DNA of 48,325 nucleotides from contig JAGHCA010000043.1 of the NCBI GenBank assembly GCA_021160725.1, positions 1 through 48,325 on the forward strand, written 5' to 3'. A program made the translations under genes and the position numbers. The notes beneath the pieces were generated by a model that did no database searches, was not told where the DNA came from, and saw only the letters and a program-made list of their open reading frames with translations. Source of the stretch: Dehalococcoidia bacterium. Its GTDB lineage: Bacteria > Chloroflexota > Dehalococcoidia > GIF9 > AB-539-J10. Positions 32,711 through 38,327 of this stretch are shown piece by piece. How positions within the stretch are numbered: the stretch's first letter is position 1; the number at the start of each line of letters is the position of its first letter.

Positions 32711-32824
32711 GGTAAGGAGTCATAGATTCTGCGGGAATCTGGAATAATAAACGGAATTACTCCCCTCAGTAAAGTAATCCACCTTCACAGATTTTGGGAA
32801 TATAAGCTGCGACCAACCGCAGCG

Positions 32825-33139
32825 CTAGCTTACAGTCGTCTCTACCTTTTTAGCACTCTTTTTCAACACTCCCTTGGGATCGCTGACCACTAGCACAATT
32901 TCCCACACGAAGAGAGCAAAAACAATTACCGCAACTCCAAGCAACGTTGCATCTAGATTTATTTCGAAAAACTCTCCCCCTTCGGTTATATAGGCTATCA
33001 CGTGGTCAACTAACCACATGATCGTTGCTCCCCAGAAAAGCAAGCTTAATAAGCCCAACTTATATTTGTCTTCTGGAGCCTTTACATACCATATCGCTGT
33101 TGCGATTACCGCGGCTAGCGCCGTCATTATGAGCCACAT
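32825..33139 (-). CDS. small membrane protein (3 TM), unknown function; paralogous to its upstream neighbour
   Basis: Hydrophobic 104-aa ORF. FWGATIMWLVDHVIAY...GGEFF resembles LWGGTILLALEHLWHGE of the adjacent ORF. Its start overlaps the neighbour's stop. Confidence 0.6.
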   Translation of the reverse strand: MWLIMTALAAVIATAIWYVKAPEDKYKLGLLSLLFWGATIMWLVDHVIAYITEGGEFFEINLDATLLGVAVIVFALFVWEIVLVVSDPKGVLKKSAKKVETTVS

Positions 33140-33540
33140 CAGGCACCTCCGCTGGCAGGATTCTCTCTTACTTTGGGCATAGCCGCCTTAGCCTTTAGTT
33201 CAGCAACCAAAATCATTATTCCCCAGACGACTGTTATGGTTATAGCCATAGCTCCACCAAATATCGCCATCTCATGAAGCATTGGAGATACATTTGCCGG
33301 ATTTTCCATTGCTGTCAAAAAAGGCGGCCAGGGGACAACTTCTCCATGCCATAAATGTTCCAATGCCAACAGTATAGTACCACCCCATAATAGTTTATTC
33401 AGCCAGCTCAACCTCCGGCTCCAGCTCAACCCTGTTTTTTTAATCCTTTCCTCACCAACCTTCTTCTCTCTGTTCTCCACAACCTTCTGCACAGCCGTTG
33501 CCACAATAGCTTCTCCCATTGGTACAAGAAAACATGCCAT
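33139..33540 (-). CDS. small membrane protein, unknown function
   Basis: 133-aa ORF with AAGGAGGT SD, hydrophobic segments and the motifs EHLWHGE and PMLHEM. Confidence 0.6.
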   Translation of the reverse strand: MACFLVPMGEAIVATAVQKVVENREKKVGEERIKKTGLSWSRRLSWLNKLLWGGTILLALEHLWHGEVVPWPPFLTAMENPANVSPMLHEMAIFGGAMAITITVVWGIMILVAELKAKAAMPKVRENPASGGA

Positions 33541-33633
33541 ATCTTTTTACCTCCTTATTGTATTTTCTAAGTGCTCAGTCGATTCTATGTCAATGATATG
33601 GACTTTGTAACATTTCTCACCTCCTTACACGTC

Positions 33634-33666
33634 TTGCAAATAATTGCAACAGCAGTCAATTGCAAT
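33634..33666. promoter_or_regulatory. candidate Fur-family operator (box a): TTGCAAATAATTGCAA plus an extra ATTGCAAT half-site
   Basis: 33634-33649 matches the perfect palindrome at 37382-37397 in 15/16 positions (reverse complement). A further ATTGCAAT lies at 33659-33666. It sits about 95-125 nt upstream of the 33540 start. Confidence 0.5.
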
Positions 33667-33711: not shown

Positions 33712-34311
33712 TCAGCAGGCGCTCTTCTCAGCAATAACCAAATATCGTTCTGGGACATCCTCAAAATGGGTTATCCTCAAACCGGCTTGCTTTATCAGCC
33801 CTTTTAACTGGAACTCGTCGGGCAGAAGGTCATTGGCGATCGCGCCACCGATGGATTGATGAAGTTGGTTAGTCATCTCTCGGCTCATGGTGTGGCAGAT
33901 GACCAGCCGGCCATTATTCCTGAGCACCCTAGCTATTTCCTTCAATGCCTTGCACTTGTCGATAAAATGAGGAAAGGCACTGTTGCATATAGCCAGGTTC
34001 ATAGAATCGTCAGCCAGGGGAATAGCCATACCATCGGCTTGAACAAAATCAACGATGGATAGGGAGCTTTTGGCTTTTCCTTGGACTAGCATCTCTGCGG
34101 AAAAATCCAGGGCGACAATTTTCCCTTCATCACCCAGCTCTGCGATTAGAAAGGGTAACAGGATGCCAGTGCCGCTGCCAATATCAAGCACAGAATATCC
34201 GGGTTTAATGCCTAATTCCTTGACGATGTTTTTCAGACACTTCAACCTCTCCGGGGTAAGCTCTTTATCCCAGGTTGGAGCTAGTTGGTCGAAATATTCT
34301 TGAAGTTGCAT
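33712..34311 (-). CDS. class I SAM-dependent methyltransferase
   Basis: VLDIGSGTGILL motif I and the methyltransferase type 11 pattern. Start taken at MQLQEYF just after the permease stop. Confidence 0.75.
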   Translation of the reverse strand: MQLQEYFDQLAPTWDKELTPERLKCLKNIVKELGIKPGYSVLDIGSGTGILLPFLIAELGDEGKIVALDFSAEMLVQGKAKSSLSIVDFVQADGMAIPLADDSMNLAICNSAFPHFIDKCKALKEIARVLRNNGRLVICHTMSREMTNQLHQSIGGAIANDLLPDEFQLKGLIKQAGLRITHFEDVPERYLVIAEKSAC

Positions 34312-34313
34312 AT

Positions 34314-35168
34314 CTAACCTGCTAACGGAGCTTGCTGCCATCCCTTCACTTTTCTCTTAGGAGAGAATGCTGTTGCCAAGCCAAATATAATGGCAGAAGT
34401 TATCACTATGGCGGCGCCGGAGGGAATGTCGAAGAAATATGAAGCTAAAAGTCCAACCCAGCAAGAAATAACACCAAAAGCTACAGCAATAAGGAGCATC
34501 CGCTTTAAGCTATAAGTAAGTTGATAGGCAGCGGCTGCGGGATTGAGAATAAGGCTGTAAATAAGCAAACCGCCGATACTTTGTAACGAGGCAGTTATAG
34601 TCACACCGGTGGAAAACAACAAGCCGTAGAAAATGATTGTTGCTGGTATGCCCACGGCCAGAGCTACCTCCCGATGGCAAATCACTGCTTGAATTTCCTT
34701 ATAGAAGGCAGCCACCAGCCCGCCTATTACGCCTGTTATAACGGCTAAGAAGATGATATCCTGTTGCGTGACGGTCAATATGCCCCCCCAGAATAGGTTT
34801 AAGGCTTCGGTCCTGGCTCCAGGCATTAGCCCCATGAAAAGAAAAGCAAGTCCTAGCATCAGGGAGAAAACAATGCCGATGGAAGTATCGGGATTTAATT
34901 CACCACGGTCAGCCACAGGCCCGATAATGGCTGCCGAAGCCAGGCTGAATAGCAAGGCGCCAATTAAGGGATTAAACCCCAGCCAGAGACCAAGGAGAGC
35001 CCCAGCAAAAGCAGCGTGGGCAATGCATACTCCGATGAAAGAGAGATGCATGGTAACCACGAAGACGCCCACCACAGAACATGTTATACCCCCGAATAAC
35101 CCGGCTAGAATGGCGTTTTGCATGAAATGATACTGTAAAATAGAAAAATCCATTCCGACACCTGCCAT
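34314..35168 (-). CDS. metal ABC transporter permease (ABC-3, ZnuB/TroC-like)
   Basis: About 8 TM segments and the typical ABC-3 layout. TAATG overlap with the upstream ATPase gene. Confidence 0.8.
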   Translation of the reverse strand: MAGVGMDFSILQYHFMQNAILAGLFGGITCSVVGVFVVTMHLSFIGVCIAHAAFAGALLGLWLGFNPLIGALLFSLASAAIIGPVADRGELNPDTSIGIVFSLMLGLAFLFMGLMPGARTEALNLFWGGILTVTQQDIIFLAVITGVIGGLVAAFYKEIQAVICHREVALAVGIPATIIFYGLLFSTGVTITASLQSIGGLLIYSLILNPAAAAYQLTYSLKRMLLIAVAFGVISCWVGLLASYFFDIPSGAAIVITSAIIFGLATAFSPKRKVKGWQQAPLAG

Positions 35169-35956
35169 TATGTCTGAAGTGGAACAATCTCAGTTGGCAC
35201 TGAGGCCGGAGCTTCGTAAAGCTGACTCAACACCTCTTCCTTGAGCATTGACTCCGGGCTACCTTGCTGCCATATCCTGCCATCCTTCATTAGAATCAGT
35301 CGCTGGCAAATAGAGGGCAGCGTTCTCAGGTCATGGGTGACAAATAGAGTTGTCATATGATACTCCTTGTGAATGAGCTGTATCAGATTTAAGATTTCAC
35401 CTTGAGCTTTTTTATCTATTGAAGCTGTCGGCTCATCGAGAAGTAATATCTCAGGCTGCTGGACTAAAGCTCGAGCAATGGCTGCCCTCTGGTATTCGCC
35501 CCCGGATAGATGACCTATTGGGCGTTGGGATAAATGAGCCATGCCTACCATTTCCAATACCTTATCTACTGTTTCCCATTGAGCCCGTGTTGGCCGACGG
35601 AATAGTCCCAAGCGACCATAACAGCCTACCATTACCGTCTCTCTAACATTGATGGGCAACCTGGGGTCGATATTTTCCACCTGAGCCACGTAGCCTATGC
35701 GCTTCCTCAAATTACTGCCACCTCTCCCGTTTAACAGCGACCCCAGTACCCAGGCTTGTCCATGAACCAGTTTGCCCAGGCCATTAATCACTGTGAGTAA
35801 GGTAGTTTTGCCGGCGCCATTAGGTCCGATAATCCCTATGAATTCTCCTTTCCTCACCTCCAGAGACACGCCCTGTAAAGCCACATCTTCCCGGTAGGAA
35901 ACCACAGCATCACGAATCTTGATAACCGTGTTATCCATATTGTTCCGCCCATTCAT
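35168..35956 (-). CDS. metal ABC transporter ATP-binding protein (ZnuC/TroB-like)
   Basis: Walker A GPNGAGKTT, signature LSGGEYQR, Walker B LLLDEP. Start may be the ATG at 35938. Confidence 0.85.
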   Translation of the reverse strand: MNGRNNMDNTVIKIRDAVVSYREDVALQGVSLEVRKGEFIGIIGPNGAGKTTLLTVINGLGKLVHGQAWVLGSLLNGRGGSNLRKRIGYVAQVENIDPRLPINVRETVMVGCYGRLGLFRRPTRAQWETVDKVLEMVGMAHLSQRPIGHLSGGEYQRAAIARALVQQPEILLLDEPTASIDKKAQGEILNLIQLIHKEYHMTTLFVTHDLRTLPSICQRLILMKDGRIWQQGSPESMLKEEVLSQLYEAPASVPTEIVPLQT

Positions 35957-36788
35957 TCAAAGCTTCCAGCAGTAAATCAACGTTCTTATCTATTGTCTTC
36001 TCCCAGGTTTCGGTGTTTTCCAATCCACCGGGGAAGTTGGATATGGTTACCGGAATGGCTTCAATATCTTGTTCCATAGATGCGCCTAATGTCGTGGAAC
36101 CGCTCTGGAGGTTATCGATGATCAAAGCCGCACCGGCTTCTCTAGCTTCGGTTATCAATTGCTCCACATCGGCCGGGCTCAGCTCTTCAGGCCGACCGAA
36201 AGTAGCCGTGATATTAAACCCGGCCCACTTTACAAACCCCTGTTGCATCTCAGCGCAGAGTACTTTTACTCCGTCTACTCCCGCGTCTTCCAATGTTTGT
36301 TTTACCTGGTCGCCATAATCTAAGATAGCCTGCACCCTCTGTGCAGCTCTATCCTGATAGTATGCGGCGTTCTCAGGGTCTATCTCGCCCAGGGCTTCAG
36401 CAATTTTGTCTACTGCTTCAGCTTGGACCGTGGGTACCATCCAATTGCCCGTAACGTTGAGGACCGTGATAACAAGGTTGGGGTTTTCTGCAGCGTCAAT
36501 CGCTCCATTGATATTTTGGAAATTTTGCTGGTAATCGTGGATGAAAAGGGCTTTGCTGTTAGCCAGTGCTTCGATATCGCTCGGCTTTACATCATAATGT
36601 CCCGGACACACACCCGGTGGTATAAGGGTGCAGATTTCCATTTTATCGCCAGCTACATCCTGAATAATGTCGGTGATAAGCGAGCTCCCGGCCATGATGT
36701 CAGCCGATTGTTGGGCACTGAATAAGAACGTAAATAAAATTGCCAAAACAACTACTGCTACAATGCCTGGTACAAGCTTTCTCTTCAT
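35931..36788 (-). CDS. metal ABC transporter substrate-binding protein (TroA/ZnuA cluster A-I-like, compact, non-canonical ligands)
   Basis: Signal/anchor helix, CPGHYDVKPSDIEAL (the usual dPHxYExxPxD position), long linker helix (PENAAYYQDRAAQ). Confidence 0.7.
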   Translation of the reverse strand: MKRKLVPGIVAVVVLAILFTFLFSAQQSADIMAGSSLITDIIQDVAGDKMEICTLIPPGVCPGHYDVKPSDIEALANSKALFIHDYQQNFQNINGAIDAAENPNLVITVLNVTGNWMVPTVQAEAVDKIAEALGEIDPENAAYYQDRAAQRVQAILDYGDQVKQTLEDAGVDGVKVLCAEMQQGFVKWAGFNITATFGRPEELSPADVEQLITEAREAGAALIIDNLQSGSTTLGASMEQDIEAIPVTISNFPGGLENTETWEKTIDKNVDLLLEALNEWAEQYG

Positions 36789-36812
36789 AGAACCTCCTTA
36801 ATCAGTCAATAG

Positions 36813-37364
36813 TTAGTGCCTGTTCTCTGAAGCCTGGGCAAATTCCCTTTCTATTTGTTCCATCCATTTGCTTACTTTCACTTCCCTTATAGTATAGTAG
36901 CTAGGAGTATAGGGCTTGATATCAATCACAGGACTGCCATCAATAGCATCCAAGCATTTTACCTTCAGAAGATTCCCTTTTCGCTCAAGCAAGGGAACTG
37001 CCGACACACAGATGGGGTTAGGTCGGACAGGGCTACAAGTAGCAAAAATGCCTACCTCTGGCAGGTCCTTTCTACCCATAGGATGAGCTTTGATAAGGGA
37101 ACGGTCTTCTTCTGAAGCCAAATGAGCCCAGTAGAGGACAAGAATGTGAGAGAAATCCTCTATCCCATCGAGAATACCGGTGAAGTCATCAGAGATCAAA
37201 ATCTCCGATATCATGCTTTGCTCTTTCCTCGCATCCCCTAACACTCCCTTCCACTCTAAGTCACGCCACTTAACAACCAAGCTAGGCTCTTTTATCTGGT
37301 TTTTCACTATCCCCACAGGCCTTATCTTCATTCTGGGCAAATCTTTACCACCCTTTCCTGTCAT
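36813..37364 (-). CDS. TrmO/TsaA-like (UPF0066) SAM-binding domain protein
   Basis: MKIRPVGIVKN..., HILVLYW and CSPVRPNPI motifs typical of the TsaA/YaeB family. Start chosen at MTGKGG (GGAG SD); the longer ORF start would overlap the operator. Confidence 0.7.
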   Translation of the reverse strand: MTGKGGKDLPRMKIRPVGIVKNQIKEPSLVVKWRDLEWKGVLGDARKEQSMISEILISDDFTGILDGIEDFSHILVLYWAHLASEEDRSLIKAHPMGRKDLPEVGIFATCSPVRPNPICVSAVPLLERKGNLLKVKCLDAIDGSPVIDIKPYTPSYYTIREVKVSKWMEQIEREFAQASENRH

Positions 37365-37380
37365 CTTAACGCTCCGTCTT

Positions 37381-37398
37381 ATTGCAATTAATTGCAAT
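37381..37398. promoter_or_regulatory. candidate Fur-family operator (box b): perfect 18-bp palindrome ATTGCAATTAATTGCAAT
   Basis: The sequence is identical to its reverse complement. It lies between the CooT-like gene and the TrmO-like/ABC transporter genes, 17 nt upstream of the chosen start. Confidence 0.6.
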
Positions 37399-37414
37399 TA
37401 TCAGGCAAAAAAAA

Positions 37415-37600
37415 TTAATCCTCTTCCAGTTGTATCTGAGACTTTAAGAAATCTATCTGCTGCACCTTTCCTTGGAAAACCCTCTTTTCTCCGAAAAGGG
37501 TCTCTACTTCTACTCGCCGGTCAGCAATTATCATGCGTGCGATGTCCTCCAGAATTGGCTTGTCACCTTCTTTAGCCTCATAAAGTTTAGCCATACACAT
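37415..37600 (-). CDS. CooT-family nickel-binding protein
   Basis: 61 aa beginning MCMAK, like Rhodospirillum CooT as I recall it, with the small beta-barrel pattern ...TLFGEKRVFQGKV. Confidence 0.75.
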   Translation of the reverse strand: MCMAKLYEAKEGDKPILEDIARMIIADRRVEVETLFGEKRVFQGKVQQIDFLKSQIQLEED

Positions 37601-37601
37601 C

Positions 37602-37820
37602 CTAGTACCTCCCCTTGCTCTTTGGCAGAGCCTGCTTTGCTTTCGTTAGTTCGTTGCTAACCGCAGCCATCTTAGCGGCTGCTTCTTGTAACTGTTGGGC
37701 TACCTCAGTGGATAACGAGACAACTTTATCAGCCCAATCACGGAACTCTTTCTCATGCTCGCTGTTGTGTTCAATCCAGTAGTCCAGCAGAATGCGCAGT
37801 TTTTCTCGAACGTCATCCAT
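37602..37820 (-). CDS. small helical protein with HNSEHEKE motif, unknown function
   Basis: 72-aa ORF tightly packed between the Fur-family gene and the CooT-like gene. Confidence 0.5.
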   Translation of the reverse strand: MDDVREKLRILLDYWIEHNSEHEKEFRDWADKVVSLSTEVAQQLQEAAAKMAAVSNELTKAKQALPKSKGRY

Positions 37821-37847
37821 AGCAATGCTTTCACCTACAATGGTCGG

Positions 37848-38276
37848 TCAGACTTTGTGACCTTTTTTTCGGCGGCACCCGCTGCATTCTCCTGAAATGG
37901 CCAGGTGCCTTAAATCGGCATCAAAACCAAATTCCTGAAGCAAGGTCTCTTTTAATGGATATAGTGTAGATTCCTCCAGGTCTATTATCTTGCCGCAGCT
38001 ACGGCAAACGAGGTGATGGTGATGTCCTTTCTCTGCAACATGATAGCGGACACGTCCCTCGCCAAAGTTAGTTTCCGTAACTAAATCTAATTTTTTCAGT
38101 AGTTCTAGGGTGCGATAGACAGTGGATATATTGGCATAGGGATAGCGAGTATGTAACTGCTCGTAGATTTCTTCAGCGCTGATGTGCCCGTCGGCATTAT
38201 GAAGTGCCTCGATGACCAGCATGCGCTGGGGAGTTAAGCGATGTCCCGTTTCTTGAAGAGTTACGTGGCAGCTCAT
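37848..38276 (-). CDS. Fur-family transcriptional metalloregulator (Zur/Nur-like)
   Basis: RLTPQRMLVIEAL winged helix, HHHHLVCRSCGK...CSGC structural-Zn motifs. First ATG at 38276; the TTG extension to 38306 overlaps the predicted promoter. Confidence 0.85.
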   Translation of the reverse strand: MSCHVTLQETGHRLTPQRMLVIEALHNADGHISAEEIYEQLHTRYPYANISTVYRTLELLKKLDLVTETNFGEGRVRYHVAEKGHHHHLVCRSCGKIIDLEESTLYPLKETLLQEFGFDADLRHLAISGECSGCRRKKGHKV

Positions 38277-38288
38277 TGGCAGGGGAGT

Positions 38289-38327
38289 ATTATAACAAGG
38301 TAGCAAAATTATTGCAACAAGTTGCTA
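38289..38327 (-). promoter_or_regulatory. candidate autoregulated promoter of the Fur-family gene, with box c
   Basis: Minus strand reads TAGCAACTTGTTGCAA (38327-38312, 12/16 to box b, symmetric). Its TTGCAA serves as the -35, then a 17-nt spacer and TATAAT (38294-38289). The ATG lies 12 nt downstream, giving a very short leader. Confidence 0.5.

Follow-up and report, generated by a model that had tools for sequence, protein, structure and literature searches.

A putative nickel-acquisition regulon with a ZnuABC-like transporter and an S-adenosylmethionine-dependent methyltransferase in a Dehalococcoidia bacterium

We examined a gene cluster of a Dehalococcoidia bacterium that encodes an ATP-binding cassette (ABC) transporter resembling ZnuABC, and that we read as a candidate nickel-acquisition regulon. 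The window, that is the whole stretch of 48,325 nucleotides (nt) analysed, is contig C4 of the genome bin G000 (1.45 Mb, 96% complete); G004 designates a congener, G030 a relative, and L followed by a number a related locus. Eight open reading frames (ORFs) occupy positions 38276 to 33712, all on the minus strand and at the coordinates proposed in an earlier note on this sequence (Table 1). In 5'->3' gene order they are separated by gaps of 27, 1, ~50 and 24 nt or overlap by 26, 1 and 28 nt, which bears out the co-directional and tightly packed arrangement that had been described. Pfam and NCBIfam matches likewise agreed with the families proposed from the letters alone: a Fur-family regulator, a CooT protein, a TrmO/TsaA-like protein, a ZnuA-type substrate-binding protein (SBP), an ABC ATPase, an ABC-3 permease and a methyltransferase. 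The transcription unit probably extends past the methyltransferase gene and over two genes for small membrane proteins, up to a terminator-like hairpin.

Table 1. Genes and sequence features of the locus, in the order of transcription (aa, amino acids; SAM, S-adenosylmethionine)
Feature	Position	Strand	Description
Operator box 1	38312..38327		TTGCAA-N4-TTGCtA, one mismatch; overlaps the -35 element of the fur promoter
Nur-like Fur-family repressor, 142 aa	37848..38276	-	PF01475, E 5e-32; ATG 38276
72-aa helical His/Glu protein	37602..37820	-	Motif YWIEHNSEH; no match in the Pfam copy used
CooT-family protein	37415..37600	-	N-terminus MCMAK, Cys2; PF10133, E 1e-11, residues 1-59
Operator box 2	37382..37397		Perfect, TTGCAATTAATTGCAA; in the 50 nt that separate cooT from the TrmO-like gene
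Single-domain TrmO_N (TsaA-like) protein	36813..37364	-	PF01980, E 6e-27; TIGR00104, 111 bits
ZnuA-family SBP	35931..36788	-	PF01297, E 6e-27
ABC ATPase	35168..35956	-	PF00005, E 2e-34
ABC-3 permease	34314..35168	-	PF00950, E 6e-58
Class I SAM methyltransferase	33712..34341	-	Methyltransf_31/11/UbiE matches; 28-nt overlap with the permease gene
Operator box 3	33634..33649		Perfect, TTGCAAATAATTGCAA; 5' of the small membrane-protein genes
7-codon mini-ORF	33590..33613	-	MLQSPYH; strong Shine-Dalgarno; follows box 3 and precedes the 133-aa gene
133-aa membrane protein	33139..33540	-	No Pfam family
104-aa membrane protein	32825..33139	-	Paralogue of the 133-aa protein; no Pfam family
Terminator-like hairpin	32806..32823	-	Directly 3' of the 104-aa gene

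The first gene encodes a regulator whose start was assigned by comparison with its orthologues. Among solved structures it is closest to Nur of S. coelicolor (3EYY; E = 3e-32, 115 bits), ahead of Fur/PerR proteins at 89 bits and of Zur proteins at no more than 66 bits. It has the same recognition helix as Nur, NISTVYRTLELL, and keeps the common M-site (His33, His88 and His90) and both CxxC pairs of Nur, residue roles being taken from the work on Nur (PMC2691836). The locus contains three operator boxes made of the palindromic hexamer TTGCAA repeated after a 4-base spacer, the half-site being that of the Nur box, tTGCaa-N5-ttGCAA (PMC2691836). Only two perfect TTGCAA-N4-TTGCAA boxes exist in the whole genome bin, both of them in this locus (boxes 2 and 3). 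Box 1 lies over the -35 element of TTGCAA-17-TATAAT (positions 38317-38289, minus strand), the sequence of this region that most resembles a promoter, and the regulator is probably autoregulated. Among related loci, a box is kept before fur in L013, L014, L020, L021 and L023, an equivalent of box 2 lies 5' of the SBP gene or of the gene in the corresponding slot in L013, L014, L022 and L023, and a box similar to box 3 precedes the homologue of the 133-aa membrane protein in L019. By sequence and operator the regulator is called Nur-like here, rather than a proven Nur; the known targets of Nur itself (sodF, nikABCDE and nikMNOQ; PMC2691836) include no ZnuABC-type system.

Over the whole genome, sites with at most one mismatch number 11, compared with 2-9 in shuffled genomes, so that most of the other sites are probably noise. 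We accordingly set aside those on contigs C14, C47, C71, C74, C94 and C99, whose number is within the shuffled range and several of which fall inside called ORFs. The sole plausible one-mismatch site outside the locus is CTGCAACTAGTTGCAA (C87:1191-1206), found ~40 nt 5' of a gene for a ChlI/BchI-like AAA+ protein on a contig of 2.8 kb; this gene may also belong to the regulon. A CobN-like protein is induced under nickel limitation in a methanogen (PMC12350162).

The SBP belongs to PF01297 (95 bits, cut-off 29) and scores far below all NCBIfam equivalog cut-offs. Its AlphaFold2 (AF2) model (predicted local distance difference test score, pLDDT, 94.9) has two lobes and a long backbone helix at residues 138-168, and a Foldseek search placed it next to PsaA, MntC, YfeA, ZnuA, AztC and FpvC, with template modelling (TM) scores of 0.68-0.76 at 15-21% identity and a probability of 1.0 for PsaA, MntC, YfeA and ZnuA. 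The motifs CPGHYD, GNW, LCAEM and SNF that had been picked out by eye are all in the sequence, and a profile alignment to PsaA confirmed that the canonical zinc ligand set is not kept. The idea that CPGHYD supplies the first canonical ligand needs correction: the motif is there, but PsaA His67 aligns to Gly63, and His64 is one position off. PsaA His139 corresponds to Gly114, Glu205 to Glu180, and Asp280 to Ser250, beside Asn251. Over 131 full-length members of the clade, the residues in these four columns are Gly (106/131), Gly (114/131), Glu or Asp (62/131) and Ser or Thr (124/131). Given confident fold matches and the replacement of the canonical ligand columns, the SBP is of cluster A-I by fold and not by metal site.

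Other residues are retained across the same clade. Cys61 (129/131), Pro62 (131/131), His64 (117/131), Asp66 (123/131) and His84 (108/131) are conserved, and the clade also keeps Gly114, Trp116, Pro119, Gln182 and Asn269, together with the stretches Asp225-Asn226-Leu-Gln228-Ser-Gly and Ser/Thr250-Asn251-Phe-Pro. The two Gly at former His positions and the many Asn/Gln residues would also suit a metal bound together with a further small ligand. Among 1.84 billion cluster representatives we found 152 relatives below E = 1e-30 and 557 below E = 1e-10, and the clade is large and distinct within cluster A-I. With ZnuABC, TroABCD, PsaABC, MntABC and YfeABCD the system of the window shares a PF01297 SBP of two-lobe fold, an ABC-3 permease and an ATPase; it differs from them by the loss of the four canonical ligand columns, with Cys-Pro-Gly-His, His84 and Asn/Gln kept instead, and its clade has NikR or Nur-like regulators and not the Zur, MntR or TroR of those importers. 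Cluster A-I proteins are said to carry only iron, manganese and zinc (PMC8811889).

The PF00005 and PF00950 genes lie directly 3' of the SBP gene and overlap. The ABC ATPase gene adjoins that of the SBP in 76 of 81 loci (set A, defined below). In the permease, Cys30 and His51 are invariant among the 41 permeases of the clade that were compared. An ABC-3 permease for zinc or manganese may seldom have a Cys along its translocation pathway.

A scan with one genome per species yielded 80 related loci in more than 10 phyla. They include Hydrogenedentota, Nitrospiraceae, Moorellaceae, WOR-3, Elusimicrobiota, Margulisiibacteriota, Latescibacterota, Desulfobacterales, Thermoplasmata, Methanothrix and Desulfotomaculia, the latter with Desulfofundulus, Ammonifex, Desulforudis, Desulfoscipio and Desulfotruncus. 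Neighbouring genes were counted with profiles built from the sequences of this analysis in two sets: set A, 81 loci including the window, counted up to 5 kb from the SBP gene, and set B, 45 related loci with a complete core and flanks of at least 1 kb, in windows of 1.5-4 kb. The methyltransferase was found most often (50/81 in set A, 33/45 in set B), followed by a TonB-dependent receptor (TBDR; 24/81 and 16/45), NikR (17/81 and 11/45) and a prepilin-like DUF1559 protein (13/81 and 7/45). The TrmO-like protein (5/81 and 3/45), CooT (4/81 and 2/45) and the Fur-family regulator (3/81 and 2/45) are rarer companions, and the two small membrane proteins were counted in 3/81 loci of set A. The neighbourhood is conserved at two levels, as the earlier note had thought worth checking: the core fur-SBP-ATPase-permease-methyltransferase is kept across the order, and the SBP-ABC-methyltransferase module across many phyla.

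NikR is the commonest metal regulator linked to these transporters, being present in 17 of the 80 species loci; the window itself has none. Characterised NikR regulators respond to nickel. A check against Pfam recovered NikR_C in L081, L091, L105 and L114, and the receptor, CooT and the prepilin-type protein as well. By comparison, we found a single DtxR-family gene near the 80 loci, and no Fur/Zur genes beyond the three counted. The SBPs linked to NikR share the residue signature of the SBP in the window. In two Desulfotomaculia (L043:6913-7761 and L097:6661-7510) we also saw, by eye from the N-termini, a nucleotidyltransferase/HEPN-like pair just 5' of the SBP gene.

The operon also carries genes that could handle nickel in the cytosol. 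CooT matches PF10133 over its full length (45 bits, cut-off 27) and resembles CooT of C. hydrogenoformans (6FAN; E = 0.005). It is the only CooT gene of the genome and lies outside any coo operon, the genes for carbon monoxide dehydrogenase/acetyl-CoA synthase (CODH/ACS) being on contig C70. A CooT gene also adjoins that of the SBP in L060, L071 and L086. R. rubrum CooT binds nickel via Cys2 with a Kd of 9 nM (PMC6006190), and CooT of the window is a candidate cytosolic nickel chaperone. The adjacent 72-aa protein, a candidate cytosolic metal-binding protein, has 911 homologues, of which the 120 listed bear the precomputed label PF26551, and it weakly resembles a hemerythrin-like helix (E = 0.25). 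This gene and cooT are together restricted to the same genus (5/6 loci). Its YWxxHxxxH motif resembles the CooJ motif, H(W/F)X2HX3H. The likeness is one of motif, and no solved chain named CooJ was among its PDB matches, so that we did not file the protein as CooJ. The pair recalls R. rubrum cooFSCTJ in that a CooT with Cys2 stands beside a small helical His/Glu protein; it differs in that CooT is here part of a transporter operon, the 72-aa protein has no His-rich tail and the locus has no cooC.

The genome encodes several nickel enzymes: four or more large subunits of [NiFe] hydrogenases, CODH of the CdhA type together with CdhC, and, in addition, a second gene of the Prismane family. No CbiM/NikM, NiCoT or HupE/UreJ was found in G000. 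The suggestion that nickel enzymes are encoded without dedicated nickel importers therefore stood for these families, with the caveat that four family-5 (Opp/Nik-type) SBPs elsewhere in the genome could import nickel. We saw no box of one mismatch or fewer at any of the four. In the congener G004, a gene for a 338-aa fusion of CbiM and PDGLE that starts with MHIPDGY, accompanied by CbiQ/O-like partners, lies directly 3' of the methyltransferase (L014:10182-11251, contig C3) and 53 nt behind the box CTGCAATTAGTTGCAA. In this congener, a known nickel/cobalt importer of the energy-coupling factor (ECF) type thus shares the operator of the ZnuABC-like operon.

The class I methyltransferase matches Methyltransf_11, Methyltransf_25 and Methyltransf_31 of Pfam, and has a Rossmann-like fold in which the SAM motif GxGxG and the acidic residue after strand 2 are intact (Asp53, Gly57, Gly59 and Asp79 are invariant). 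Among 36 diverse members, His125, His150, Arg154 and His161 are invariants specific to the family, and Cys119 is present in at least 90%. The AF2 model (pLDDT 94.9) has small-molecule methyltransferases as nearest folds, with the uncharacterised 3DH0 at the top of the Foldseek list, then RebM/AtmM, MitM, Coq5 and UbiG, and ArsM lower. No NCBIfam model reached its cut-off: the best, DVU_1556, gave 81 bits against a cut-off of 155, and we found no literature on DVU1556. UbiE gave 70 bits against 216. An ArsM-like identity was rejected, as the ArsM models gave 66-71 bits against cut-offs of 263-510 and ArsM ranked low in the fold search. The gene adjoins the transporter in 33 of the 45 complete loci, either upstream or downstream and down to an SBP identity of 27%, loci whose SBPs are 27-46% identical still having it, and its overlap with the permease gene is kept within the order. 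We regard the enzyme as a conserved, translationally coupled accessory of the transporter clade. In one locus (L071:9563-11017) the ABC-3 permease and the methyltransferase run together in one ORF of 484 aa. When longer proteins containing the methyltransferase were sought, two chimeric-looking ones came up and no permease fusion.

The TrmO-like protein is above the TIGR00104 cut-off (93.25 bits) and matches PF01980 at 94.6 bits, Pfam recognizing the N-terminal domain alone. Its best solved match is archaeal AF_0241 (2NV4; E = 1.5e-23). The ORF was first called from a TTG at 37397, but this codon lies inside the operator box and a GGAG Shine-Dalgarno sequence precedes ATG 37364, so that the latter is most likely the start. 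Compared with TrmO/TsaA, the tRNA m6t6A37 methyltransferase, and with the single-domain AF_0241, with both of which it shares the TrmO_N domain, it is a second copy in its genome (the copy on C34 scores higher, 122 vs 95 bits), it carries an insertion of ~25 residues near the N-terminus that is common to the orthologue of G036, and its kin are found in operons of metal ABC importers or fused to CooC-like or FmdE domains. That the gene is embedded in the operon is correct for the window; as a conserved member it fails, being a variable accessory that we did not find at this position in any of the eleven related loci examined (L013-L023). In genome G001 the same slot, behind a box, holds a membrane methyltransferase of the PEMT/ICMT type.

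The relatives of the TrmO-like gene keep similar company. The closest orthologue (177 bits; G036 contig C5, L024:5292-10912) is located between a family-5 SBP and permeases, in an operon of the Nik/Opp type (family-5 SBP, BPD_transp_1 and oligo_HPY); a ZIP gene lies ~4 kb from this operon. A TrmO-like gene is directly 5' of a CPGH-type SBP gene in a Bacillota bin (L059), 3' of a methyltransferase gene and 5' of a family-5 system in L098, and beside a Peripla_BP_2 system in L062. In Desulfotruncus arcticus DSM 17038 a 414-aa protein fuses TrmO_N to a P-loop ATPase of the CooC/MinD type (Pfam CbiA; L079:4183-5427), and in G004, ~23 kb from its operon, a 302-aa protein fuses TrmO_N to FmdE (L026:4517-5425, contig C3); a stand-alone FmdE-domain gene is present in the NikR-linked L033 (4063-4464). 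The L079 fusion gene adjoins genes for an O-methyltransferase and a CPGH-type transporter, and extra O-methyltransferases occur in both L079 and L098. We regard the TrmO-like protein as a mobile accessory of such importers.

Both enzymes could still be passengers of a correctly assigned nickel operon, serving housekeeping quinone or tRNA modification in a compact genome, an explanation that we think improbable. Consistent with it are our negative result for the TrmO-like gene at this position in L013-L023, the many NikR-TBDR loci without the methyltransferase, the generic fold matches of the latter and our failure to find a characterised relative. It accounts poorly for a methyltransferase that is adjacent to the transporter on either side in 33 of 45 complete loci and in more than 10 phyla, with its overlap conserved and with its own invariant His/Arg/Cys set. 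Nor would it predict TrmO-like genes that directly adjoin metal ABC importers of three kinds (L059, L062, L098 and L024), their fusion to a CooC-like ATPase (L079) and to FmdE (L026), a PEMT/ICMT-type enzyme in the G001 slot, or the extra O-methyltransferases of L079 and L098. In our own reading, and this is a conjecture, the substrate of both SAM-dependent enzymes is most likely a small molecule linked to the metal that is taken up. A broader proposal, which we put forward tentatively and hold to be possible rather than probable, is that nickel uptake in many anaerobes includes a so far undescribed SAM-dependent step. A methyltransferase coupled to a nickel-type cluster A-I importer, backed up or replaced by TrmO-like, PEMT/ICMT-like or O-methyltransferases, might modify an imported nickel ligand, or nickelophore, or else a hand-over molecule, for nickel release to chaperones of the CooT/CooC type, and the two Gly of the SBP would leave room for such a complex.

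The two small membrane proteins are also part of the system. In G030 (L019) both genes sit between fur and the SBP gene, which shows that they belong to it, and in two WOR-3 genomes they are found directly 5' of NikR-TBDR-SBP operons (L105:3675-4345 and L114:4983-5662); they are linked to this transporter clade across phyla. The mini-ORF MLQSPYH upstream of them has a perfect Shine-Dalgarno sequence and may encode a leader peptide.

On balance, we consider it probable, with a fair margin of doubt, that the locus is a nickel-acquisition regulon, the metal being assigned on comparative evidence. The idea of a TroA-type uptake system for nickel or another soft metal, first raised from the sequence alone, is supported by the Nur-like regulator, the operator boxes, the linkage to NikR in relatives, the CbiM-type neighbour, the loss of the canonical ligands, the conserved neighbourhood, and the nickel enzymes of a genome in which CbiM/NikM, NiCoT and HupE/UreJ were not found. 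The last three are outcomes of the refuting conditions named in the earlier note, each of which came out in favour of the idea. Several observations pull the other way. The nickel-specific site of Nur (His70, His72 and His126) is Glu68, Asn70 and His124 in the regulator of the window, and the boxes are 6-4-6 and not 6-5-6 as in Nur. The permease is the sole strong ABC-3 match in G000 (the other, on C94, is weak at 28.7 bits), so the system could also serve zinc or manganese. The four family-5 SBPs are potential nickel importers, and CooT-like proteins and CbiM-type transporters do not on their own separate nickel from cobalt. The methyltransferase is missing in many NikR-TBDR-linked loci and is therefore not needed by every member. 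Finally, the joined ORF of L071 may be a natural fusion, but an assembly error of one base within the normal gene overlap would produce it too; as no longer forms were found either, we gave the fusion little weight.

An alternative, in line with automatic annotation, is an ordinary zinc (or manganese or iron) uptake operon under a Zur/Fur-type repressor, with incidental neighbours. Homologues of the SBP are labelled 'zinc transport system substrate-binding protein' at the Joint Genome Institute (JGI), and the incomplete nickel site of the regulator and the lack of another strong ABC-3 system would agree with such an operon. Even so, we regard it as very unlikely. In the zinc/manganese ligand columns the clade has Gly, Gly, a variable residue and Ser/Thr, and the SBP sequence has no His-rich loop. 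G030 and G004 each keep a second, canonical ABC-3 system; that of G030, separate from the CPGH-type operon, begins with a Zur-like gene and includes a ZnuA with His/His/His/Asp motifs and a His-rich loop, so that zinc has its own system where both occur. G000 also has a ZIP transporter, the regulator linked in 17 species is NikR and not Zur, and the half-sites of the boxes match those of Nur. Two further Fur paralogues of G000 are available for iron and zinc, one of which resembles the Zur-like gene at the head of the canonical ZnuABC operon in G030. On contig C78 of G000 (L119:1310-2377), a Zur-like Fur paralogue is followed after 4 nt by a 207-aa His-rich polytopic membrane protein, with no ZnuABC operon; this protein could be a zinc-regulated importer of the bacterium.

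A cobalt importer, or one with a broad range covering nickel, cobalt and other soft metals, seems to us rather unlikely. The box-controlled neighbour in the congener belongs to the CbiM family, which carries cobalt or nickel, a Cys/His site suits several soft metals, and the M-site of Nur accepts zinc too (PMC2691836). Arguing for nickel instead are the affinity and Cys2 dependence of nickel binding by R. rubrum CooT (PMC6006190), the many nickel enzymes of the genome, and the fact that the commonest linked regulator is NikR, which is nickel-responsive where characterised.

If nickel is the metal, the Nur-like repressor would bind the three boxes at its own promoter, before the transporter genes and before the two small membrane-protein genes, and nickel scarcity would derepress all three units. 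The membrane-anchored SBP would capture Ni(II) or a small nickel complex via Cys61, His64, Asp66, His84 and Asn/Gln residues and pass it to the ABC-3 permease and the ATPase for import. CooT, through Cys2, and the 72-aa protein would then take the nickel and deliver it to CODH/ACS and the [NiFe] hydrogenases, and the methyltransferase and the TrmO-like protein might act on a metal-linked small molecule, for example a ligand that is modified for nickel release or hand-over.

Textbook nickel importers comprise NikABCDE, NikMNQO/CbiMNQO, NiCoT and HupE/UreJ, and cluster A-I ABC systems are assigned zinc, manganese and iron. The system resembles NikABCDE and NikMNQO/CbiMNQO in its proposed role, namely nickel import of high affinity under the repression of a nickel sensor, and relatives in the clade are adjacent to NikR. 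NikABCDE is of the family-5/Opp type and NikMNQO of the ECF type, whereas the system of the window is of cluster A-I with an ABC-3 permease, and the window has no NikR. In our literature search we found no paper that names nickel as the substrate of an importer of the cluster A-I or ZnuABC type, and none in which a methyltransferase belongs to a metal importer. We would therefore call the transporter a new variant of the cluster A-I ABC importers that is linked to nickel.

Should the assignment hold, it would define a new class of nickel importer whose clade, with 152 representatives (E<1e-30) in more than 10 phyla, includes cultured Desulfotomaculia (among the cultured carriers are Desulfofundulus thermobenzoicus DSM 14055, Ammonifex thiophilus, Desulfoscipio geothermicus and Desulfotruncus arcticus), and it would correct a systematic mislabelling as 'zinc transport system'. 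That SAM-dependent enzymes accompany the transporter so persistently suggests a chemistry of metal acquisition that has no described precedent. For the anaerobes that drive the carbon and hydrogen cycles, Dehalococcoidia among them, the supply of nickel sets a limit on hydrogenases, CODH/ACS and related enzymes.

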